Of a DNA stretch of 64,000 bases, positions 8,774 through 62,177 are shown piece after piece. Under the pieces are notes generated by a model. It had not been told where the DNA came from. It saw nothing but the letters and a program-made list of their open reading frames with translations, and did no database searches. A program made the position numbers and the translations under genes. Location: positions 2,637 to 66,636 of IMG/VR virus record IMGVR_UViG_3300033141_004448; one strand, given 5' to 3'. The stretch is from a virus. The stretch's first letter is position 1, and every line of letters begins with the position of its first letter.

Positions 8774-8919
8774 TCAACCCTCCTAAAAAATTCACACGTT
8801 GTTGCATCATCATATTCATACGTTTCGCAATCACAACAATTGCACCATCCGACATCCAATGGTGGATCTTCAGCAATCATATAGTGCTCGCAATTTTCAC
8901 AATAATTATTTTCGCTCAT
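8770..8919 (-). CDS. 49-aa Cys-rich microprotein
   Basis: Hand translation MSENNYCENCEHY...GWCNCCDC...DATTCEFFRRVE; resembles 11564..11689. Confidence 0.55.
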   Translation of the reverse strand: MSENNYCENCEHYMIAEDPPLDVGWCNCCDCETYEYDDATTCEFFRRVE

Positions 8920-9077
8920 TTTACTACCTATTCTTTCTTAATCCATTTTACTTTATAAGCACAAACGTGTATATCCAAACACACACCTCTCTTTTGTTTT
9001 TTCAAAAAAGATGTGAATTCTTCTTCCGACTCTAATTTAAATATATCATTTCCTTTTACTATAAAAAATATCATTTA

Positions 9078-9914
9078 TTACCGCCTCCATTCTCTTTTAT
9101 CAATTATATCTAATATCTGTTCCACGCGATATTTGTAATCCAATTCTTCGGTATTCACGCGTGAAATATCCTGATTTGTAATTATATCTTCTTTTGAATG
9201 ACCGCAAGCAAGTATGTCATACACGCGACCCTGAATCATTTTTCGCTTGACCATGTCTTCATTATGCAGGGCGAATATTTGCCCTGCCTGAGTATAAACT
9301 TTTCGCGTGTCCTCATACGGAATGTATCTACCCATTATCCTGATATTATCACGAACGAAGTCATTCCACCCGTTACCATAAACGTGAATGCCATTCTTGC
9401 CACGAAAATGTTCACTCACGATCTCATATTTCCGCTTATCGTAATTTCCCACGTAAAGATACTTACAACCATAATCTCCTGAGAAATCCGGTCTGAATGT
9501 TTCCGTGTCGGTAGCACACTCAACATGATATGAATTTGGCAGGTCAGAGTTCGGTTCTATCGTGAGGTAAGCGTCATAATGATATTGATAATTTTCGTCC
9601 CAAAAACGCTTCATATTGATCGGTGAAGAAACAATCCAAAATATCTTATGTAAAACGTTTTCCTTGACGATTTCCTTCACAAACCTATCCAAATTTTCGT
9701 TGTTACAATTAGTAATCAATATATCATAATACTTGAACTTGATATTGTTACAATTAAACAAGTCATAAAGGTATGCTTTATATCCCATTCGCTTTAATGA
9801 CGATTGAAATTGAAGAAGTTCAATCGATTCACCCCAACATTCATTTTTATTAATATATTTCGGGCATATAAGTGCTACTTTTAACTTATTTCCTTGAATT
9901 GATATATTCCACAC
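9078..9914 (-). CDS. CgeB-like glycosyltransferase
   Basis: KVALICPKY N-terminus, CATDTETFRP, YVGN, VYGNGW, RVYDILACG; start codon uncertain (overlaps endonuclease 3' end). Confidence 0.8.
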   Translation of the reverse strand: MWNISIQGNKLKVALICPKYINKNECWGESIELLQFQSSLKRMGYKAYLYDLFNCNNIKFKYYDILITNCNNENLDRFVKEIVKENVLHKIFWIVSSPINMKRFWDENYQYHYDAYLTIEPNSDLPNSYHVECATDTETFRPDFSGDYGCKYLYVGNYDKRKYEIVSEHFRGKNGIHVYGNGWNDFVRDNIRIMGRYIPYEDTRKVYTQAGQIFALHNEDMVKRKMIQGRVYDILACGHSKEDIITNQDISRVNTEELDYKYRVEQILDIIDKREWRR

Positions 9915-10554
9915 ACTCCACTAATTTTCGTTGCTTTCGTTTTATCACGAATCCTATATTATTATAATACTTTTCAATCGAATCTTTTTTATCAAGTCTT
10001 AATACCCACATCTCTTTTCCACTTTTGAGTGTATTTCTGAATGATAAACTCGAATCAATTTCAAAATACTGTAATAATAACCGTTGAGCAAATTCTAACC
10101 ATTTTTTATGCGTGCTTTGTAATCTAAGTTTTAATATAATAAATTTATGACCTTTGTTATTCACTCCTCTGTATATTCCACAGTAACCATCAGAATCAAA
10201 CCATGATTGAAGAAAATGTTTTGGATATTTTTCACATAAATACATCAATCTTTCTTCTGTTTGTGATTTAAACCAATTATAAAATGGAGTATTTTTTATC
10301 TCAAATTTATATAACCATTGTTCACATTTTCTTCTCGGCTTTGTTCGACCTATATACAATTCTCTGTAATTGTGAAAAACTTTTAAAACATTCCTACCAA
10401 ACTCCTCGACAAATTCTTTATCTACCGCCGTTAAACGTAATACTCCATTTACTCTATTTCCTCTTTTTATTCCATAACATCCTCCATCACCAACAATAAA
10501 ATTACTTAAAATATATGACAGTTCTGGTGATGATTTAATTACAATATTTTTCAT
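9886..10554 (-). mobile_element. Free-standing LAGLIDADG homing endonuclease 1
   Basis: Two LAGLIDADG helices: YILSNFIVGDG and FLQSWFDSDG; no intein splicing motifs. Confidence 0.9.
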
Positions 10555-10558
10555 AGTA

Positions 10559-10657
10559 TCACTTCATTATCCCATACAGTTCTTTTTGTATAAAAATACA
10601 TTCCCACCATATTTCATTTGGAGTGAAATATTTTGGTGAGATTAACGCAAACTTCAT
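10559..10657 (-). pseudogene. Orphaned N-terminal stub of the CgeB-like glycosyltransferase
   Basis: MKFALISPKYFTPNEIWWECI(FIQKELYGIMK*) aligns with LKVALICPKYINKNECWGESI of 9078..9914 (12/21 identical). Confidence 0.75.
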
Positions 10658-10658
10658 T

Positions 10659-11552
10659 TTAACATTTCACGCCCCATATCAATGACTCTAACTCGTCTTT
10701 TATCCTGTTTTTACACACGCTAAAATCATACTTTGGCTTAATTGCTATTGATCTTACTACCAAATCGTTTTCATGTGAATGAATTACCTCTGCAATTCCC
10801 AATGCACCGCAAGCTATACGAAAAGAGCGAGAACCAATTTCCCACATTGAATTATAATAATACTTGCAATTTGCGATTTCACGCAACCACGAATGCCAAT
10901 GCATTTCTTTGACTTCATTCTCGAACAATCCTTCGACTCTTCCGTTGTAACGCTCACACATTGTGGCAAGCGTTTTAAGCTTGTATTTTTCTTTGAATAG
11001 CCAGCTTAAAATACCGTTATACACCTTTGATACCGAACCGATCACGAGCAATTCATACTCGCGTTTGTCAAACGGAATTAAGAAATTATCTTTTACCCAT
11101 TTCACAGGATATGGTGTATAAAAAGTCTTCACGTTATCGTGAATCATGCTGTAGGTATTCATAGCGCGTTCGTCTTCGTGAACATAAACCATATCCACGT
11201 ACTCTTTCACGGCTTTAAAGTGATCAACTTGTCCTTGTGGCGACATTCGGAATATCATTGATATATCGTCTTCCTGCAACATTACTATCTTTGCTTTCGG
11301 AAAAAAACTCTTGACTTTTTTAAATACTTTCACGTGAAAGTTTTCTGGACCTTTACATTGCTGAACGAAGACAATATCAATATCGCCCATATCATGAAAT
11401 AATATTGGCTTCATAAACTCATTCAAGTTAATATAATACACGTCATTCGGAAATAGATCACCGAGTGCACCCCAATTATAGTATTTTGGCGGGTTTGTTT
11501 CGTGCCGCCACCAACCGTAATCGTTTAATGCCGAAATTAATATCATTTTCAT
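10659..11552 (-). CDS. Putative glycosyltransferase (GT-B-like, divergent)
   Basis: MKMILIS start, Rossmann-like segments, RIACGALGI at the donor-binding position; island context. Confidence 0.55.
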   Translation of the reverse strand: MKMILISALNDYGWWRHETNPPKYYNWGALGDLFPNDVYYINLNEFMKPILFHDMGDIDIVFVQQCKGPENFHVKVFKKVKSFFPKAKIVMLQEDDISMIFRMSPQGQVDHFKAVKEYVDMVYVHEDERAMNTYSMIHDNVKTFYTPYPVKWVKDNFLIPFDKREYELLVIGSVSKVYNGILSWLFKEKYKLKTLATMCERYNGRVEGLFENEVKEMHWHSWLREIANCKYYYNSMWEIGSRSFRIACGALGIAEVIHSHENDLVVRSIAIKPKYDFSVCKNRIKDELESLIWGVKC

Positions 11553-11563
11553 TTTATCAACTC

Positions 11564-11689
11564 CTATATATCAATTTCTTCGAAATCACTACAGGCAACT
11601 GCATCACATTGACACTCCACTTGATGATACTCACAAAAACCAATATCCTCTTCGAGGTAACGCCAATAAAAACACTCATTACACTTCAT
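11564..11689 (-). CDS. 41-aa Cys-rich microprotein
   Basis: Hand translation MKCNECFYWRYLEEDIGFCEYHQVECQCDAVACSDFEEIDI*. Confidence 0.55.
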   Translation of the reverse strand: MKCNECFYWRYLEEDIGFCEYHQVECQCDAVACSDFEEIDI

Positions 11690-11819
11690 TTTTTTTAACC
11701 GCACGTAGTATTAATTCAAATATTCTTCTCGGAAATTTTAGTATTCGTAATTTCCACGCAATGTCTGACCACATTTCGAATGGTACCGACAAAAACCTTC
11801 TCAAGCCAGAAAAATTTTT
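11679..11819 (-). pseudogene. Displaced duplicate C-terminus of the radical SAM gene
   Basis: Start-less frame KNFSGLRRFLSVPFEMWSDIAWKLRILKFPRRIFELILRAVKKNEV* aligns with KNFRGLKRLLSLPFELWANVGWKFRIFRFPKKYFEYVLQLVKR (23/43 identical). Confidence 0.85.
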
Positions 11820-12469
11820 CGATTAAACTCCCTCTCCAGAATCCTCTGTTTTCGAATGATCGTAAATCCAACTTTTTTATAAAAATTATATTTGTCTTCC
11901 TTTTTTGATATACGCAACTCATATACTCTTTTATAGTGTTCTCTTTTCTTTTTACGTTCATATATTTTTGTATCTATACCAAAATACTTAGAAAGTAGAT
12001 ATTGTGCGAAATCTATCCATTCTTTATTAGTATTAATTAGTATCAGACTGAAATATTTACCTATTGAATTACGGTTTTTCCTACGATAATTATATATTCC
12101 AACACTTCCATCAGAATTAAACCACGATATAAGAAATTCACGTGGATATTTTTCGCATAAGCACATTAATTCTTTAGTAGTTTTTGATTTAAACCATTTA
12201 TGAAATGCTTGACTATAAAAAATTACAAGATAATTTTCTTTTCTATTTTTTGTCCCACGTGGTACTGTAATAATAGGAGGATTATTACTCTTACCAAACG
12301 TTCGTAAGACATTCTGCATATGGAATCTAAATTCCTCTGTAAATTCTTTGTCTATACTTTGCATCCTTATCATAAATTGAGATGGTTTAACAACATACAC
12401 ATTACCATCTCCAACAATTAAATTACTTAATATATAAGACAACGAAGGCGAACACTCTGGTTCAATCAT
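11801..12469 (-). mobile_element. Free-standing LAGLIDADG homing endonuclease 2
   Basis: YILSNLIVGDG and FLISWFNSDG; paralog of 9886..10554 (both 222 aa; shared LCEKYP and RKQR). Confidence 0.9.
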
Positions 12470-13692
12470 TTTTTATAACTCCTTTTTACTAATTGTAATA
12501 CATATTCGAAGTATTTTTTAGGAAAACGAAAAATACGAAACTTCCATCCAACGTTTGCCCACAGTTCGAATGGTAATGACAATAGACGTTTTAAACCTCT
12601 AAAATTTTTTCTTATATTATCTTTTCTGAATTTCAAACCACATAACCAATATAAACTATGCTTTGCAATATCGAAATTTACGTGCTCGGGAAACATTCTC
12701 TGGAGTTCAGACGGATAACTTGCATAAGTGTACATACTAAATCTTGCCTGAGGAATCCATGATTTTGTAATATCAATGAATGTCATTAAGTCTAATAAAT
12801 CTTCACGCGTTTCGGTAGGCAGTCCTACCATGAAAGAGAACATTGGAGATACATTAGGAAATTTTTTGAATACGAATTCTAACTTAAAGTAGTTTAAAAC
12901 CGTTGATTTAAACTTGCAATTGAGTAATTCTCTTAACCGCTCACTTGTTGTTTCCAATCCGATTTCGATTGACACGCAACCGCAATCACTCATTTCTTTT
13001 ATAGTTTTATAATTGATTTTATTAACGTCCATGTTACAATGCCATTTCATCTTGCATGACTTTAATTCTTCTCCAATTCTTTTATCCCACTTGAAATTAG
13101 GATCGCCGATAGATACAAAATCGTGACCAGCATTTTTTATTGTCCATATTTCTTTTATTACACGATTGACAGGAACTGGAGTCCACTTGCCATTCACGGT
13201 ACAAAAACGGCATTTATTATTACAGCCGAAACTCGTGAAAAGTAACGGTTTAAATATCTTATAGAAGCGTTTCGTTTTTTCGGTAACGGGATCTTGCATA
13301 TCGAATCTTTCATTTATGAAATGCACGTCATAACTTAATGATTTATAATAAAACGATTCGAGTTTTTCTTTGCCTTTATTTATTGCCTTGTACCCTCCAA
13401 CATAAAAATTCATAATCCCTAATTTTTCACGAAGATAACCCATTAATAACTCGCAATGTTCCCATTGCGTGCCTTCCATTGAAGAAAACATTACATGTTT
13501 TGCCTTACCCGCAAGTTCTATTAGCGTATAATAAGAATCACACCGTTCGTCCCAATACTCGACATTATACCCTTCTGCTTCATATCGTGCTCCTACTTTC
13601 ATTATGGAAAGCGGAATGTATTGGTCGCCAGAATGCTCGTCAATCTTTGGATAAATAAGTAAATAATCTATTTCATTCATAACATTTTGCAT
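12466..13692 (-). CDS. Radical SAM protein with B12-binding-like N-terminal domain
   Basis: TSFGCNNKCRFC (CxxxCxxC), IGLET, FMVGLPTET; N-terminal LLIYP...PLSIM. Confidence 0.85.
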   Translation of the reverse strand: MQNVMNEIDYLLIYPKIDEHSGDQYIPLSIMKVGARYEAEGYNVEYWDERCDSYYTLIELAGKAKHVMFSSMEGTQWEHCELLMGYLREKLGIMNFYVGGYKAINKGKEKLESFYYKSLSYDVHFINERFDMQDPVTEKTKRFYKIFKPLLFTSFGCNNKCRFCTVNGKWTPVPVNRVIKEIWTIKNAGHDFVSIGDPNFKWDKRIGEELKSCKMKWHCNMDVNKINYKTIKEMSDCGCVSIEIGLETTSERLRELLNCKFKSTVLNYFKLEFVFKKFPNVSPMFSFMVGLPTETREDLLDLMTFIDITKSWIPQARFSMYTYASYPSELQRMFPEHVNFDIAKHSLYWLCGLKFRKDNIRKNFRGLKRLLSLPFELWANVGWKFRIFRFPKKYFEYVLQLVKRSYKK

Positions 13693-14291
13693 GTATCATC
13701 ACCATTTTTGAATAATACTTCTGATATGTCAAACACGCTATATTTATAAAACCGGACATTGATATTTTTCCACACGATCTTTATGTTATGCACCTCATAG
13801 CGTAATCGCGGTGGTAATATCGTTATATCGGCATTAAAATACTCTGAAATGTTTATCACGTTTTCCGTGATGTCGTCAGAAAAATATGGCATATCCGACT
13901 GCAAGCGTACAGGCGTGTTAATATCAAGGTATAAACAAAATTGCGTGAATAACTCATTAAAAAAATCAAATAATTTTATGTGGTATTTACCGTTTATAAT
14001 TGACTTTATATCATCTCTATATTTTTTATAATACTTGAATTTATAAAACGTGTCGTCATATTTCTTCCACAATTTCCTTTGCCACGAAGAATCGCCGTTG
14101 TATATACGTATGTCTTCGAATTCAGTGAAACGATTATTAATGACAGGTATCGTTACACCATAACATTTATTATACAATTGTGGCAATTTCTCGCGATCTA
14201 ACACGACAAAAACGTCTGCTTCCTTTAATGCACGCCAAAAATGTATCGTGCCAAAAAAAGGGATGTAATCAATTAATATTTTCCTCATCAT
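13677..14291 (-). CDS. WbqC-like protein (divergent)
   Basis: YIPFFG...ADVFVVLD...TIPV...WQRK; paralog of 15174..15908. Confidence 0.7.
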   Translation of the reverse strand: MMRKILIDYIPFFGTIHFWRALKEADVFVVLDREKLPQLYNKCYGVTIPVINNRFTEFEDIRIYNGDSSWQRKLWKKYDDTFYKFKYYKKYRDDIKSIINGKYHIKLFDFFNELFTQFCLYLDINTPVRLQSDMPYFSDDITENVINISEYFNADITILPPRLRYEVHNIKIVWKNINVRFYKYSVFDISEVLFKNGDDTCKML

Positions 14292-14487
14292 TCTCTTCCT
14301 CGTAAATAAACATTCTGTCTTTTATCACCGTAAATTAACCACGCGTTTTTTGCCATGCCTTACACCCTTTACACGGTTCTTTACTCATTGGCGTATTTAC
14401 AAACACGCATTTTTTGCAATAATTTTCGTATATTTCGTGTTGCCACCTATTATATGCATGAATACAATTTCCAAACATTTTATCACC

Positions 14488-15174
14488 TCAAATATGGTAA
14501 TCGACTATTACAACATAATCATTCGGCTTTAGTTTATCGAGAAACCTCTCTTTGAATTTCATTGCCCAACTTACAACATTTTCTGTTCTTTCGTACCATT
14601 TACCATTTTTACACAACACCGAATAGGTATGAAAATACTTACTCGATTTAATTAAATCTTTTTTATACTCTTCTGAATATGGAAAGTGTGAAATTTCATA
14701 TTCAGCTACTATTTGTATTTTCTTTTGTATTCCTTCCCAATCAACCTGAAAAACATACGCACCGTCATACCCGCATAATCCACTATCACGACCCATTAAT
14801 CCTTTTTTTCCTTTTATTGCACCAAATGGAGGCTCTTTCAAAAGTAACATTCCTTGCCACCGACCGCCAATTTCATACCAGTCATACTTTGCATTTGGGT
14901 TACGCCAATAACCATAAACATTTATATTTTCGCTAAATTCATAACCATACCATTTTTCTAACCATTCTTTTGCATTCTTATATTCATACTCTTTTTGATA
15001 ATCTGAATGTTTTACCTTCCACTCTTCGAATTTACTTTCGAGTTCGTCTTTTTTAATTTCAACAACAAACTCTTTTTTCAAGCACTCATAATACGGTTTC
15101 ATCACTTTTTCGAGTTCGTCCCTTATATTTTCTGGTTTTTTAGGGAATACCACCATTAATGCATAATGTGTCAT
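14488..15174 (-). CDS. Viral hypothetical protein
   Basis: NPNAKYDWYEIGGRWQG and terminal VIVDYH, a pattern I recall from uncharacterised phage proteins. Confidence 0.65.
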   Translation of the reverse strand: MTHYALMVVFPKKPENIRDELEKVMKPYYECLKKEFVVEIKKDELESKFEEWKVKHSDYQKEYEYKNAKEWLEKWYGYEFSENINVYGYWRNPNAKYDWYEIGGRWQGMLLLKEPPFGAIKGKKGLMGRDSGLCGYDGAYVFQVDWEGIQKKIQIVAEYEISHFPYSEEYKKDLIKSSKYFHTYSVLCKNGKWYERTENVVSWAMKFKERFLDKLKPNDYVVIVDYHI

Positions 15175-15908
15175 TATATCAACTCCTTTGTTTTTTCTCC
15201 GATATTGAATAGAGCGTCAATTACGCTCATTTGTGGAATAAATGGTTCATAAACTTGCTCATACACGGGATGCTCATATTCCTGAAACGAAATCTCAATG
15301 CCTTCACGTTCGAATAAGTCCATGTCGGCATAATTCTTTCCGTCTGCACCGAATAGGAAATGATCGATCTTTAAATTGTAACACAATTGGACAATCTTAT
15401 CGCTTGCGCTACCGAATAAATATTTCAAGTCTTCCTTTTTTCGTTCCGAATATCTCCACCTGCCGCCAGACTGGACTATCACGTATGATTTAATATCCAG
15501 CCAATTTTTAATCAGGAATATCAATTTGATATTCAATTCGGATAAACGTTTATTTTCTGCACAAAGAACGCGCTTGATATACTTGTAGTATTTCTTGAAG
15601 TATTTTGCTTTGCCGTAATTCACTTCTAACGCACGTAAGATTTTCCGTTGCCAATTCTGAGTGTTATCAATTTTTATCTCATTAAATCTCATTTGTTTTC
15701 CGGTATGAATTATCGGCACGGTTATATATTGCCACCCTTTCTCCGTGCCAATGCGTATCTTATTCCTGTTATCAAACTTATTCTTATCTCCAAAGTTAGC
15801 GGGATAACAATCCATTAATACGAACACGTCCGACCGTTTCATTTTCGACCAAAACCCTAGGTATGGAAGAAAAATCGGTTGATGTGCAGACAATATTGTA
15901 TTTGCCAA
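15174..15908 (-). CDS. WbqC-like protein
   Basis: AHQPIFLPYLGF, DVFVLMD, NRNKI, TVP, NYGKA, HPVYEQ...FIPQMSVIDALFN. Confidence 0.9.
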   Translation of the reverse strand: MANTILSAHQPIFLPYLGFWSKMKRSDVFVLMDCYPANFGDKNKFDNRNKIRIGTEKGWQYITVPIIHTGKQMRFNEIKIDNTQNWQRKILRALEVNYGKAKYFKKYYKYIKRVLCAENKRLSELNIKLIFLIKNWLDIKSYVIVQSGGRWRYSERKKEDLKYLFGSASDKIVQLCYNLKIDHFLFGADGKNYADMDLFEREGIEISFQEYEHPVYEQVYEPFIPQMSVIDALFNIGEKTKELI

Positions 15909-18721: not shown

Positions 18722-19195
18722 TTATAATCCATGCCACTTTTTATGGCATTCGTCACAAACCGTAAGAAGATTATCGTGACTAAGTGACATTTCAGGGAAT
18801 ATTATAACACTATTTATATGATGAATGTTTCTAGCTGGTTTTTTTCCGCATATTTTACACGTATAATTATCTCGCTTTAATATTTCTATTCTACATTTTG
18901 CCCATTCTTTTGAATTGTAAAAATTATTTGCTGACTTGAATCGTTTTTCCCATTCGTTTTTGGTAAATCCCTTCGGATTGTCGTTTTTTGTCATTCTTAT
19001 ATTGTGGATGTTGCTAGCATTTAATCGTTCTTGTACATCCAGTACCTTTATGATGAGAAGTCTACGTTCATCAATCAATTCAGGTGTCATACCACTTATA
19101 TCGTAATCAATTTCGTCTAATATTTCTCTGCAATATGGTTCATCAATGTTATCTTTACAGTATTTATCTAATTCGTATATTTTATTAAATTTCAT
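18722..19195 (-). CDS. HNH endonuclease
   Basis: RDNYTCKICG...HHI...NLLTVCDECHKKWH. Confidence 0.85.
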   Translation of the reverse strand: MKFNKIYELDKYCKDNIDEPYCREILDEIDYDISGMTPELIDERRLLIIKVLDVQERLNASNIHNIRMTKNDNPKGFTKNEWEKRFKSANNFYNSKEWAKCRIEILKRDNYTCKICGKKPARNIHHINSVIIFPEMSLSHDNLLTVCDECHKKWHGL

Positions 19196-19892
19196 CTTTC
19201 CACCACAATCCTTCTCCTTGAAAATCTTTCAATACATCTTCAGCGGTTATTTTACTATCTTTTAAGTATTGTTTTAATGTTTGTGTTTTATCAAAGATGT
19301 TTATTGATGAGGAAAAAAGATCAATAAGGTTTCTTATTACACGCTCTTGAATAGCACATTTAGCTGTAAAAGAAAATACACTTCTTATAGTTATACCGTC
19401 TATAAATTGAAGACTTTTTTTTAAACCCACGTCTATTTTCTTTTCTCCTGATATAATAATTCCTTTTACGTCACATTTTTTTTCTTCTTTTATTGCAGTC
19501 ATATATTTTAGAATTTGACCTATAACATTTTTATTAGCTTGTTGTTTTATTTCAATAATCGTATAATTGTTTGACTTTCTTTCTTTAGCAAGTATGTCGA
19601 TTATACCATATTTACAACGGTATTGTTGTGCAAAGAAATTCAGTTCCTTCAACCACGGAATGTAAATCCATCTATCAATGATCCAGTTTTCTATATCTTT
19701 TTCATTTTTCCATTCAAGATTGTTAGTATTTATGTACACATTAATCACGTAAAAGAGGTCATGCAAAAAGTCAATTATTTTTTGATTCCTTTTTTGAAGT
19801 AATTCTAATATAGTTCTTTTAGGTTCCTCGAATTCTGATAAATTCGCATCATCAATTTTTCTTAAAAACACATCTGGACTAATCCATATCAT
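19185..19892 (-). CDS. NucS/EndoMS-like PD-(D/E)xK nuclease domain protein
   Basis: EKDIE...GIIDILA...IIEIK...IGQILKY. Confidence 0.75.
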   Translation of the reverse strand: MIWISPDVFLRKIDDANLSEFEEPKRTILELLQKRNQKIIDFLHDLFYVINVYINTNNLEWKNEKDIENWIIDRWIYIPWLKELNFFAQQYRCKYGIIDILAKERKSNNYTIIEIKQQANKNVIGQILKYMTAIKEEKKCDVKGIIISGEKKIDVGLKKSLQFIDGITIRSVFSFTAKCAIQERVIRNLIDLFSSSINIFDKTQTLKQYLKDSKITAEDVLKDFQGEGLWWKDEI

Positions 19893-20498: not shown

Positions 20499-23129
20499 AT
20501 GACTATGGCAAAACAAAGAAAGAAAACTGCTATGGCAACACATTCGCCAAATATCCCTACAGGGTTTGGACGGGTGAGTCGCGAGATATCGTGTTACCTA
20601 GGAGATTTTTATCAGCATTATTGCGTGGGATGGCAATTTCAAGGTGAACCCGGGATTTATACATTCATGGACGAACCGAAAGGAGGAAACTTTCTTTTAT
20701 GCCCGACTGCAGTGAACGGTAATTATAACGAATTTGGTCAAAGAACTTTCCCGTTATTCATACCATTTGCAAAACCTGATTTGTTGATAACACTTGCAGA
20801 TTGGTTTGTGTTTTCACCGGGAGCACATAACGGATACATAAATTACAATGATAATTGGTTGCCGAATTTTCTAAACAATGCAAGTGAACAATTAAAAAAG
20901 AAGATACACAACGTATGGTACTTCCCAATCGATTCAACACCGATAAATAATGCATTCATTCGGCTTCTGGAGAAAACAGAAGTGCCAGTTGTAATGTCAA
21001 AATACGGTTCAAAAGAGCTGAAGCGTTTGGGCATATATCACGAGTACATACCGCACGGCGTGAGAAAGAGTAATTTTCACATTAACTCCGAAGAAAATCG
21101 AATGTCGTCAAGGCGTGATATTGCTAATAGATTCCGCAATCACCCATTAATTAATAAATCGTTGTTGAATAAAATCGAAGATAGTTTTATTTGTTTTCCA
21201 GATCATACGCATATTTTAACATCTAACTTCACGCAACAAAAAATAGGTGATTTAGATGATTATGGTCACGTGATATCTGGAAGTGGGAATATTAGACAAT
21301 ATAAAAAGTTACAACGGAAATATGATGGTTCAATGATCACGTTTAAAGTTCAAGGTAGTTATAGAAATATTACTTGTACTAATAACCATCCGATACTTGC
21401 CGTGAAACGACAAACAATTCAATGTCGATTACCTTCACGACAAAAAAACAGATGTGTATGCCGAACTAATAAAGAATCACGCGCGGAACCATGTCGTTCG
21501 TGTAAGGATAAGTCATTTAATAACATAATTTGTGATTACTTTCCTGCACGTGAACTTAACACTGGAGACTTCATTGCGTATCCAATAGAAACAAATTTTA
21601 ATTCTAAAACTTTAATTGACCTTTCAAAAATACTAAACTTTGAGGGAGAAATTAGAGATGACAAGATCAGGGCAAGCTGGAATAAAAATTGGGTAAATAG
21701 ATATCTACCATTAAATGCTGAATTCCTAGAATTACTTGGATATTATATAGCCGAGGGTAATTGCATTAAACGAACCGGAATACAATTTACAATAAACAAA
21801 AACGAGAACGCATTTACAGAGCGAATAAGGGAACTAGTACAAACATTATTTGGACTACCGATAAGAATCTACGATCAAAAACAAAACAAGGCACGAATGA
21901 TTCGTGTCAAGGGAACTATAATCAATAAGATATTTAGCTATTTTGGTGGAGAATATGCCGACAAGAAGCTCATTTCAAAAGAAGTGATGCAACTCAACCC
22001 ACGACTTTTACTCAATTTAGTAAAAGGATTTCACCGTGGAGATGGACATTACACAAAAACGAGTTCTGGTAAAAGAAAACGTTGGGTGCTTACAACAACA
22101 TCAGAACAGCTTGCGTGGCAGTTACATACCATTTTAGAACGAAATAAGATCTTCTCTAATATTAGAAAGGAACCAAGATCAAACAGAAAAACAATATATC
22201 GTATTACAGTTTATGGTGGATACCTGACTGAAAATCTTGATACTGACACTTACAAAAGAAAATGGAACACAAAAATTTACTATGATAATTATGTCTTAAA
22301 GGAAATAAAATCCAAAGAAACTTATGAAGATAAAATCAATGTCTATAATCTCAGTGTATTCCGTGATAATAATTACCTAGCAAATAATGCAATTGTCCAT
22401 AATTGTTTTTGGGGTGGTAGAAATCAGCTTCGTAAAATGCCGCAGTCGCTTGTTGAAGTGTGCGGTAAATTTGCAAAGGACAAAGAAGACGTGTTATTCA
22501 TTTTTCACACATCACCAACACCATACGAAGTAGGTTTTACCTTACCATTTCATAATGAGCGATACGGGATAAACGATAAAGTGATCTTCACGGAGTCAAG
22601 TCAGGTGTACCACCCGTCAAATCACTTCATAAATAATATCATTAATTGCGGTGATGTATATCTTGATACAGCAGGTGGCGAAGGTTTCGGCTTCTTTAGG
22701 CTTGAGTCTGCCGCTTGCGGTCTTCCACGCGTGATGATCAATTGGACAAGCTCAGCAGAGCTAATGGGATTGAAAGAAAATGACATACCAATTAAAATTG
22801 AAGACGTGATATCTGTTAATGGTGGCGGCGAAACAGAAAATATTAAAACTGAGAGCGGAATTTTAGTGCCACCAATTACAAGGTGGACAAGCGGTGTCGG
22901 TGCAGATTTTGGCTTGATTGACGTTGATCTTGCTGTAGAAGCGTTAAATTACTTATATGACCACAGGCAAGAGTGCAAGCGAATGGGAAGAAAAGGAAAT
23001 CAATTTGCCTTTGAAAATTATAATTGGGATCAAATCCTACCAAAATGGCACGATTTAATTGAAACTATATTCGAAGAATATGAACAAATAAAACAGAAAA
23101 TGGAGCTCGTAATTGACAGTCCAACTTAA
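20499..23129 (+). CDS. GT4-like glycosyltransferase interrupted by an intein
   Basis: PTGFGRV, YFPIDS, YIPHGV, GRNQLRK, GEGFG...LESAACGLP, YNWD; extein about 472 aa. Confidence 0.9.
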   Translation: MTMAKQRKKTAMATHSPNIPTGFGRVSREISCYLGDFYQHYCVGWQFQGEPGIYTFMDEPKGGNFLLCPTAVNGNYNEFGQRTFPLFIPFAKPDLLITLADWFVFSPGAHNGYINYNDNWLPNFLNNASEQLKKKIHNVWYFPIDSTPINNAFIRLLEKTEVPVVMSKYGSKELKRLGIYHEYIPHGVRKSNFHINSEENRMSSRRDIANRFRNHPLINKSLLNKIEDSFICFPDHTHILTSNFTQQKIGDLDDYGHVISGSGNIRQYKKLQRKYDGSMITFKVQGSYRNITCTNNHPILAVKRQTIQCRLPSRQKNRCVCRTNKESRAEPCRSCKDKSFNNIICDYFPARELNTGDFIAYPIETNFNSKTLIDLSKILNFEGEIRDDKIRASWNKNWVNRYLPLNAEFLELLGYYIAEGNCIKRTGIQFTINKNENAFTERIRELVQTLFGLPIRIYDQKQNKARMIRVKGTIINKIFSYFGGEYADKKLISKEVMQLNPRLLLNLVKGFHRGDGHYTKTSSGKRKRWVLTTTSEQLAWQLHTILERNKIFSNIRKEPRSNRKTIYRITVYGGYLTENLDTDTYKRKWNTKIYYDNYVLKEIKSKETYEDKINVYNLSVFRDNNYLANNAIVHNCFWGGRNQLRKMPQSLVEVCGKFAKDKEDVLFIFHTSPTPYEVGFTLPFHNERYGINDKVIFTESSQVYHPSNHFINNIINCGDVYLDTAGGEGFGFFRLESAACGLPRVMINWTSSAELMGLKENDIPIKIEDVISVNGGGETENIKTESGILVPPITRWTSGVGADFGLIDVDLAVEALNYLYDHRQECKRMGRKGNQFAFENYNWDQILPKWHDLIETIFEEYEQIKQKMELVIDSPT
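21192..22403 (+). mobile_element. 404-aa intein with LAGLIDADG domain
   Basis: Starts CFPDHT, block B TNNHP, LLGYYIAEG and KGFHRGDG, ends VYNLSV...IVHN followed by extein Cys. Confidence 0.92.
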
Positions 23130-61072: not shown

Positions 61073-61712
61073 TTCGTATTTTACTTCAGAAATGGAAATT
61101 GAACGTTTCACAATGCCGTTTTTTCATTCCATTTTACCGCGTTACGTTTCTCCACATTATTGTAAGAATTGTATGCTATCACAAGAAACGTCCAATTCCA
61201 CTGAAATGGTATTAGAACACGAGTTAGAAAATCGTGGTACGGATTTCGGATTTTCACCCTCGAGAATTGGTGCGGAATCGGTAACGATCTTCCTAAATTC
61301 CGCAGAGCAGAGAGAAGATAGCACGAAAAATTCAATCTTGAACGCAAAAATTCAATTCTCTAAGGTAATAATTTTTTCACTACAAAAAATCAAATTTGAT
61401 CGCGAAGTCGAGAGTCGCGGTGAAGTTTTTTTTCATTTATTTCACTTTATTTTTGATATTAACAATAGTTTTATTTTCTGGCATTTTTTTCTTCACCAAG
61501 ACCGACAATCTCGCGACCACGATAAAGTGGAAAGGCGCGGTGGAAAGATTTTATTTTTAAAGTTCCCTGAAACCAAAAATATTCCCTCATTCTCCATTAT
61601 TTTTTATCTACCTAGCCCCACAAATATAGTGGCAACGGAGTCGAAAGGAGCGTTGTGGCGTTGTTTTTTTCTTTTTCATGATTCACCTGAGAGAAAATAG
61701 AGTCGTATTTTA

Positions 61713-62177
61713 TTGCCGCAACAATCCCGACAAACCGTGATAAAACTTTATGGTAAAGAATTATTTGATAAATACGGTAAAAGCGTTCCGTTATCCGATA
61801 ATAACAACGGGAATGGTAGCAGATATTGCGTGTGGTGCGGGAATGACATTAAAGACAAAAGGAAACGGAGATATTGCAGTAATAAATGTGAAAGGCAATT
61901 TAGACTTGAGTTCGCAAGAAGATACGATTGGAATTATATACGTAGAATGGTATTAAAGCAACGCGGATATAAGTGTGAGAATTGCGGGTCAAACGAAAAA
62001 ATCGAAATACACCATATAATACCACGGTGTAAAGGCGGTAGCAATGAACTGGAAAACCTACGCGTGTTGTGCCACAAATGCCACCGCAAAGAAACCGACA
62101 AACTGCTTCGCGAACGGCTATCAAAGAGGAGGACGGCGTCCGCGTTCGCGAGCGATTTACTATCTTTTTTGTTGTAA
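61713..62177 (+). CDS. HNH endonuclease with N-terminal zinc finger
   Basis: CVWC...YCSNKC; CENC...HHIIP..GGSNELENLRVLCHKCH. Confidence 0.85.
   Translation: MPQQSRQTVIKLYGKELFDKYGKSVPLSDNNNGNGSRYCVWCGNDIKDKRKRRYCSNKCERQFRLEFARRYDWNYIRRMVLKQRGYKCENCGSNEKIEIHHIIPRCKGGSNELENLRVLCHKCHRKETDKLLRERLSKRRTASAFASDLLSFLL

Follow-up and report, generated by a model that had tools for sequence, protein, structure and literature searches.

Two free-standing LAGLIDADG endonuclease genes beside diverged duplicate gene ends in a tailed virus: possible homing with replacement gene ends

The record IMGVR_UViG_3300033141_004448 of the IMG/VR collection describes a tailed virus, of which a window of 64,000 nucleotides was analysed (bases 2637-66636 of the 66,636-bp record, with a completeness estimate of 98%). 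In this window, a gene coding for a radical SAM protein is followed by a free-standing gene for a LAGLIDADG endonuclease (endonuclease 1), and behind the endonuclease gene a second, diverged copy of the 3' end of the radical SAM gene was identified. A mirror-image duplication is located 1.2 kb from the first, where an orphan 5' fragment is followed by a second endonuclease gene (endonuclease 2) and then by a glycosyltransferase-like gene, here designated gene B. The end which is joined to its gene body is called the attached end in the following, and the detached copy the orphan; at the radical SAM gene, these are tail A and tail B, respectively. The two endonuclease genes probably each arrived together with a replacement end of their target gene and without the involvement of splicing, a reading which we hold with only modest confidence.

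Architecture of the two loci

A LAGLIDADG gene lying between the radical SAM gene and a duplicate of its 3' end had been proposed from a sequence-only reading of this DNA, and the architecture was confirmed by the open reading frames (ORFs), by their translation and by tblastn. When the radical SAM protein was searched with tblastn against the whole window, its residues 362-405 were identified again at 11819..11688 (52% over 44 aa, E 3.6e-12), while the next best match had an E value of 1.3. The tail is present in all three relatives of this protein (P0002, P0003 and P0004, with 48-53% identity). In tail A, the last four codons (SYKK) go past the end seen in the relatives. These codons contain AGGAG, located 9 nt 5' of the ATG of endonuclease 1 and forming its ribosome-binding site, and the ATG itself overlaps the TGA of the radical SAM gene in the sequence ATGA.

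Tail B has neither an ATG nor a GTG start. It is preceded by a stop codon, which sits one codon before the homology, and begins with S-KNFSGLRRFLSVPFEMW in the translation of 11679-11900. Its first 22 nt are shared with the 3' end of the endonuclease 1 gene in another frame, and its 3' end overlaps the next small ORF. A TTG at 11804 forms a TTGA overlap with the endonuclease 1 stop, with the closest GGAG-like sequence ending some 24 nt 5' of it. In an ungapped comparison, tails A and B are identical at 23 of 43 residues and at 86 of 135 nt (64%). The earlier description of the second tail as start-less, stop-free, identical at 23/43 residues and overlapping the endonuclease stop thus held in all its parts. 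When 1340 stop-to-stop frames with a length of 25 aa or more were all compared with one another by blastp, just two short gene-end duplications emerged in the 64 kb, namely the radical SAM tail (E 2.6e-14) and the one beside the second LAGLIDADG gene (E 1.6e-4).

For the second duplication, the first 21 residues of the orphan 5' fragment align with residues 11-31 of gene B (12/21 identical, E 9.2e-5; blastp E 1.6e-4). The ATG of the fragment lies 1 nt past the stop of the preceding gene A, and its M1 aligns with the start of the relative P0163. Gene B, which is 57% identical to its relative P0162 (269 aa), has a TTA at the codon aligned with the family start, as defined by the relative and by the orphan fragment. 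Its sole canonical in-frame start is a GTG at 9914, within the 3' end of endonuclease 2. The two endonucleases are related to each other, with 91 of 214 residues identical in BLASTP (43%, E 3e-45). Both loci have a common layout, consisting of an upstream copy with its stop, the endonuclease gene, and a downstream copy which overlaps the endonuclease 3' end. Which of the copies is the orphan differs between the loci: it is the downstream one at the radical SAM gene and the upstream one at gene B. As a result, a block made up of tail B, a small ORF, gene A and the 5' fragment is bracketed by both endonucleases, with one orphan at each end (Table 1).

Table 1. Features of the locus, in order of position in the window.
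Feature	Position	Strand	Length	Remarks
Gene B, glycosyltransferase-like	9078..9914	-	278 aa	weak PF13524 match, E 5.7e-4, below cut-off
Endonuclease 2, free-standing LAGLIDADG	9886..10554	-	222 aa	PF14528, E 1.6e-9
Orphan 5' fragment	10559..10657	-	32 codons	ATG start; diverged copy of gene B N-terminus
Gene A	10659..11552	-	297 aa	no family match (Pfam, PHROG)
Small Cys-rich ORF	11564..11704	-		directly 3' of tail B; start GTG 11704 or ATG 11689; no Pfam or PHROG match
Orphan tail (tail B)	11679..11822	-	47 codons	stop-free; homologous to radical SAM residues 362-405
Endonuclease 1, free-standing single-chain LAGLIDADG	11801..12469	-	222 aa	PF14528, E 2.1e-14
Attached tail (tail A)	12466..12609	-		codons K362 to stop of radical SAM gene
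Radical SAM gene	12466..13692	-	408 aa	own C-terminal tail and stop; PF04055, E 8.8e-16

A marine sediment metagenome is the only public run containing the stretch and is probably its source; no RNA run is listed for the stretch. In a second assembly of this probable source run, which uses the same data and is not independent, the region 8800-14400 was recovered as a single contig with 0 differences and no joints. P0163, which is the only close relative of gene B, comes from a 17-kb contig that belongs to a bacterial metagenome-assembled genome, and its public record lists it as a hypothetical protein. Since gene B, its relative, is viral, this contig may be viral DNA which was binned with a bacterial genome.

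Allele-like copies, splicing signals and the endonuclease

The two tails are about equally close to the three protein relatives: tail A is identical to P0002, P0003 and P0004 at 26, 29 and 27 of 43 residues, and tail B at 26, 31 and 22 of 43, respectively. At the 24 sites which are invariant in the three relatives, tail A and tail B each keep 21, and all changes are conservative. The Nei-Gojobori method gave a nonsynonymous divergence (dN) of 0.365 and a synonymous divergence (dS) of 1.516 between the tails, corresponding to a dN/dS of about 0.24; the third positions are close to saturation. For the 5' fragment, a hand reading of alignment A7 showed 12/21 residues identical to P0162/P0163, and by the same reading F11, P13 and I16 are common to the fragment and P0162 and are not found in the N-terminus of gene B.

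Neutral decay was simulated in 20000 runs starting from the attached tail, with 46 nt differences placed either all or half on tail B. With all differences on tail B, three or fewer changes at the invariant sites occurred in 0/20000 runs, and with half of them at a frequency of 0.0045. The probability that no stop codon arose was 0.06 with all and 0.16 with half of the differences on tail B. Since 21 of the 24 invariant sites are kept, the relatives are about equally close and neutral decay fails to produce such a copy, the two tail copies represent alleles of different lineages and not a decayed local duplicate. Both orphans, undecayed and relative-like, thus evolved within working genes until recently. 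A tandem duplication of the gene end in place, either before or with the insertion, after which the copies diverged side by side and the orphan became a pseudogene, would agree with the adjacent and co-oriented position of the copies, and their 64% nt identity could reflect an old age. It is nevertheless improbable, since the orphan runs over 47 codons without a stop or an indel and shows only conservative changes at the invariant sites, in addition to the outcome of the simulations. Further, tail B has states in common with the relatives which tail A lacks, and vice versa, and the 5' fragment likewise has the three P0162 residues which are absent from gene B.

The intact tail B, positioned for an in-frame homologous join to the gene body, raises an alternative in which the endonuclease gene together with the attached tail constitutes an intron, of the group I or the archaeal bulge-helix-bulge type, and the body is spliced to tail B. 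LAGLIDADG genes are classically intron-borne, and the junction sequence AAAAATTTT is self-complementary. In a relaxed bulge-helix-bulge scan, 10 in-frame near-homologous candidates were identified for endonuclease 1 compared to 5.5 expected, a borderline result reached by 5% of the shuffles; the same scan was unremarkable for endonuclease 2. However, the strict scan gave candidates at the level of shuffled sequences, with one in-frame candidate for endonuclease 1 against a mean of 0.5 (34.5% of the shuffles were as good) and 0 candidates for endonuclease 2, and cofolding of the two junctions was no better than for shuffles (z = -0.49). No Rfam family reached its gathering score anywhere in the window, and at E <=5 in 9000-13800 nothing relevant was found, the one match being a chance match to a small RNA. 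Non-coding room for a ribozyme core is also lacking, and the upstream ORF already possesses the complete conserved tail with its stop. An intron is therefore very improbable, and the earlier inference that no splicing takes place is supported by the lack of an intron signature in the Rfam, cofold and bulge-helix-bulge analyses. An intein as the origin of the free-standing endonucleases was rejected: each has its own start and stop, the frame differs from that of the downstream copy, and PF14528 is the only domain identified.

The PF14528 matches of endonuclease 1 (54 bits) and endonuclease 2 (38.4 bits) are both above the cut-off of 22.5. For endonuclease 1, an AlphaFold2 model was obtained with a mean predicted local distance difference test score (pLDDT) of 94.5 and a predicted template modelling score (pTM) of 0.90. 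With Foldseek, I-DmoI (5o6g_A, E 1.5e-7) was identified as the best match, and PI-PfuI (1dq3) was matched at E 4.4e-7; both are among the top matches together with I-OnuI and I-SceI, and 135 matches were obtained at E <=0.001. Sequence identity to the solved enzymes is just 15-18%, and a profile search of PDB sequences with the endonuclease gave nothing at E <=0.01. In the model, the duplicated alpha-beta-beta-alpha-beta-beta-alpha fold is present in one chain, and the acidic residues D21 and D120 terminate both LAGLIDADG motif helices (8-18 and 109-120). D21 is invariant among 27 sequences, and D120 aligns with the D/E of the family in the motif FDSEG. On the basis of this I-DmoI-like two-domain fold and of both acidic residues, endonuclease 1 looks active. 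Only the last four residues, which are encoded by tail-B-derived DNA, have a pLDDT below 50, and they form the sole low-confidence part of the model.

A word-based homologue search with the endonuclease returned the query only, and an exhaustive profile search gave 713 matches at E <=0.001. Among the 17 of these 713 homologues that were inspected, a similar N-terminal extension of roughly 40-110 aa is found in most sequences that exceed about 255 aa; from its sequence, this extension looks like a helix-turn-helix and not like fused gene ends. The only relative in IMG/VR, L007, has 28% identity and lies within a 926-aa ORF (L007:2044-4821, +), of which it is probably an intein; no duplicated gene ends were found around it. 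In the phage collection, no match was found for the radical SAM protein, for endonuclease 1 or for P0163.

Proposed origin of the arrangement and its polarity

The proposed mechanism starts from a donor virus in which the endonuclease gene would be located just outside its target gene, after the stop of the radical SAM gene for endonuclease 1 and before the start of gene B for endonuclease 2. In a recipient without the endonuclease, the enzyme would cut inside the gene, some 100-140 bp from that position. Repair would then proceed by homology on the side of the gene body and by an illegitimate join on the other side. In this way, the donor gene end would be copied in along with the endonuclease gene, and the recipient's own end, outward of the cut, would be left stranded as the orphan. 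The attached allele would be immune to cleavage. If so, the approximate positions of cleavage can be read from the inner orphan borders: they lie near 11819-11822 at the radical SAM gene and, at gene B, between about 10595 and 10559. These borders represent predictions, made from sequence only, of two LAGLIDADG target sites, which are testable in vitro.

Several features point indirectly to the attached ends as the newcomers and to the orphans as the residents. Tail A appears as the newcomer because its SYKK extension holds the ribosome-binding site of endonuclease 1 and the two genes overlap in the ATGA. Similarly, the attached end of gene B can be regarded as the newcomer because the canonical start is lost and the GTG start lies within endonuclease 2. 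The orphans would be the residents because their outer junctions look native, with the ATG of the 5' fragment 1 nt after the gene A stop and tail B overlapping the next ORF. The mirror-image second case strengthens the reading as a whole, and the earlier proposal of an inserted cassette carrying a replacement end has to that extent gained from the architecture, from the allelic nature of the tails and from the second locus.

Several observations weigh against this reading. The tails share nine identical nucleotides at the junction, the AAAAATTTT mentioned above, and any immunity of the attached allele must therefore depend on differences deeper in the tail. For translation, the gene B GTG is an odd fit, with GGAG only 1 nt upstream. 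The distances among the tails are star-like, so that phylogeny marks neither of them as native, and the four radical SAM gene bodies are likewise equidistant at 48-54%. The three close radical SAM relatives, encoded on contigs of 1.9 kb (P0002), 8.7 kb (P0003) and 44.7 kb (P0004), are known as proteins only. No relative was revealed when IMG/VR was scanned with the radical SAM protein itself or with two of its alignments, the JGI metagenomes contained only 3 loci with 27-29% identity, and the species genomes 1 locus with 25% identity. The polarity is therefore a putative one. Endonuclease-free alleles, from which the original tail was to be recognised, had been called for in the earlier proposal; none that is both close and accompanied by its DNA context was found, and the tails stand about equally near to the three protein relatives. 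With the gene B relative as query, IMG/VR yielded no match. Compared to an outgroup, tail A has 21-22 of 43 residues identical and the other tails 13-18; a single position is unique to tail A and the outgroup, and no conclusion was drawn from it.

A reversed or mixed polarity has to be weighed here, in which the orphans or the whole bracketed block were imported and the attached ends are resident, or in which repeated homing with co-conversion left chimeric copies, as in the history of an island of homing endonuclease genes (HEG-island). The location of the orphans at both ends of one endonuclease-flanked block would fit such a history, and phage endonuclease islands with cargo fragments have been described (PMC10055350). 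The tail distances do not polarise the event, and tail B, being nearest to P0003 (31/43), fits a resident tail as well as an import from a P0003-like lineage. On the other hand, a donor would be needed in which the endonuclease was already located upstream of a truncated tail, which only pushes the question back. The ribosome-binding site and the ATGA overlap of endonuclease 1 are built into tail A, and had gene B been the resident, its ATG should have been retained, while the gene now has no canonical start at the family position. We regard this alternative as possible but rather unlikely.

Within the preferred reading, arrival of each endonuclease with a replacement end, the orphan ends may themselves be working parts, such that each endonuclease carries a replacement end and, in addition, a copy of the conserved-type end as a homology arm. 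This extension is speculative, and we consider it unlikely. If it were true, the cassette could move by homing among viruses with no more than about 50% identity in their genes, and each homing event would turn the end of the recipient into a new orphan, which would explain why the orphans are undecayed. Self-contained cassettes swapping gene ends would then drive the mosaicism of auxiliary genes in tailed viruses, maybe including archaeal ones.

Viral setting and comparison with known systems

The virus record encodes a tail sheath protein, baseplate J, a portal protein, a large terminase and a family B DNA polymerase, and because of the sheath, baseplate, portal and terminase proteins it can be assigned to a contractile-tailed virus. 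In the phage collection, the terminase is most similar to Halogranum tailed virus 1, with 28.7% identity in an alignment covering 38% of the query, and for the family B polymerase only weak matches to bacteriophages were obtained. The look-alike clusters of the endonuclease are for the most part archaeal or viral. An archaeal host is plausible: the earlier assignment to an archaeal virus is no more than suggested by the terminase match and by the endonuclease look-alikes. No tRNA genes were found in the window. A Shine-Dalgarno-like 4-mer is present upstream of 30 of the 55 ORFs with at least 150 aa. A near-identical leader, AGGAGTTGATAAA, precedes the starts at 11552, 15174, 16825 and 15908 (-), and a close variant precedes 12469, the start of endonuclease 1.

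A third LAGLIDADG element was identified at 20499-23129 (+), in a gene for a glycosyltransferase-like protein of 876 aa which matches phrog_2170 on residues 637-771. The gene contains an intein at about 21192-22406, which has a LAGLIDADG domain of its own (PF14890 and PF14528). From a reading of the translation, the intein extends from the Cys after DSFI (about residue 232) to HN followed by Cys (about 636-637). In blastp, it matched neither of the two free-standing endonucleases at E <=1e-3. All three LAGLIDADG elements of the virus are located in glycosylation-type genes, and since the third one sits in an intein, a single genome allows three strategies of insertion to be compared.

Among the other genes, two small Cys-rich ORFs, 11564-11704 and 14335-14478 (-), have a CxxC-type spacing, lie between larger genes of the cluster and have no family match. 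Two pairs of paralogues were also identified. One is formed by 13677-14291 and 15174-15908 (-), a WbqC-like protein and its neighbour with 29% identity over 92 aa, and the other by 61701-62174 (+) and 18725-19228 (-), proteins of about 155 aa with 29% identity over 84 aa.

Intronless homing by free-standing endonucleases is exemplified by the Seg and Mob enzymes of phage T4. With respect to the enzyme itself, endonuclease 1 shares the single-chain two-domain LAGLIDADG fold with I-DmoI, which is encoded by an archaeal intron, and with PI-PfuI, which is encoded by an intein. Unlike these, it is associated neither with an intron RNA nor with an intein splicing domain, and it has its own start and ribosome-binding site.

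In the main texts of the literature on prokaryotic viruses, no junction-level description of such an arrangement was found and nothing relevant beyond one account of phage islands (PMC10055350); a mirror case at the 5' end was not found described either. In that account, as far as its section on islands goes, islands flanked by endonucleases contain small genes which are fragments of essential cargo and which were suggested to be recombination substrates. The virus locus resembles these HEG-islands in having free-standing endonucleases between genes and at the boundaries of exchanged DNA, in the fragments of cargo genes, and in two endonucleases bracketing a block. The nucleases of the phage islands belong to the HNH-3, PD-(D/E)XK and T5orf172 types and concern essential bacteriophage genes, whereas here they are LAGLIDADG enzymes and the cargo is apparently auxiliary. 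The fragments of the phage islands are dealt with in one sentence of that section, without an anatomy at the level of the junctions. A further mark of HEG-islands would be their conservation at over 90% nt identity among viruses that are diverged elsewhere; no genome of a related virus was found for such a comparison.

The closest counterparts are found in fungal mitochondria, and the precedent cited in the earlier reading, an endonuclease moving with a replacement gene end, is borne out by the parts of the fungal report that bear on it (PMC3630166). There, mobile endonuclease ORFs (mORFs) with a foreign C-terminus are described for atp6 of Allomyces macrogynus and for atp6, atp9, cox2 and nad3 of Glomus sp. 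As in these elements, the viral locus is composed of a gene core, a C-terminus that was probably inserted, a LAGLIDADG ORF (in fungi also GIY-YIG) and a C-terminus that was probably displaced, and no intron signature is present. The two tails in the virus are strongly diverged (64% nt identity), comparable to the copies of Glomus atp6, for which 63.5% nt identity is given. The native end in the fungi was recognised from close relatives with 91-98% nt identity. The virus differs from the described fungal cases in several respects. The arrangement resides in a tailed double-stranded DNA virus of prokaryotes and not in an organelle, and the gene affected codes for a radical SAM protein within a cluster of the glycosylation type. 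While insert and ORF continue the reading frame of the gene in Glomus atp6, the probably inserted tail of the virus is closed by a stop codon of its own, and the endonuclease begins at the ATGA. In addition, a mirror-image case at a 5' end is present.

The architecture as such matches one which is known from fungi and hinted at in phages. If the proposed origin holds, the combination of an endonuclease with a replacement gene end, known from fungal mitochondria, extends to tailed prokaryotic viruses, here with a 3' and a 5' end affected within one locus. The locus would then represent a compact natural example of selfish nucleases producing mosaic genes without the aid of introns or inteins.

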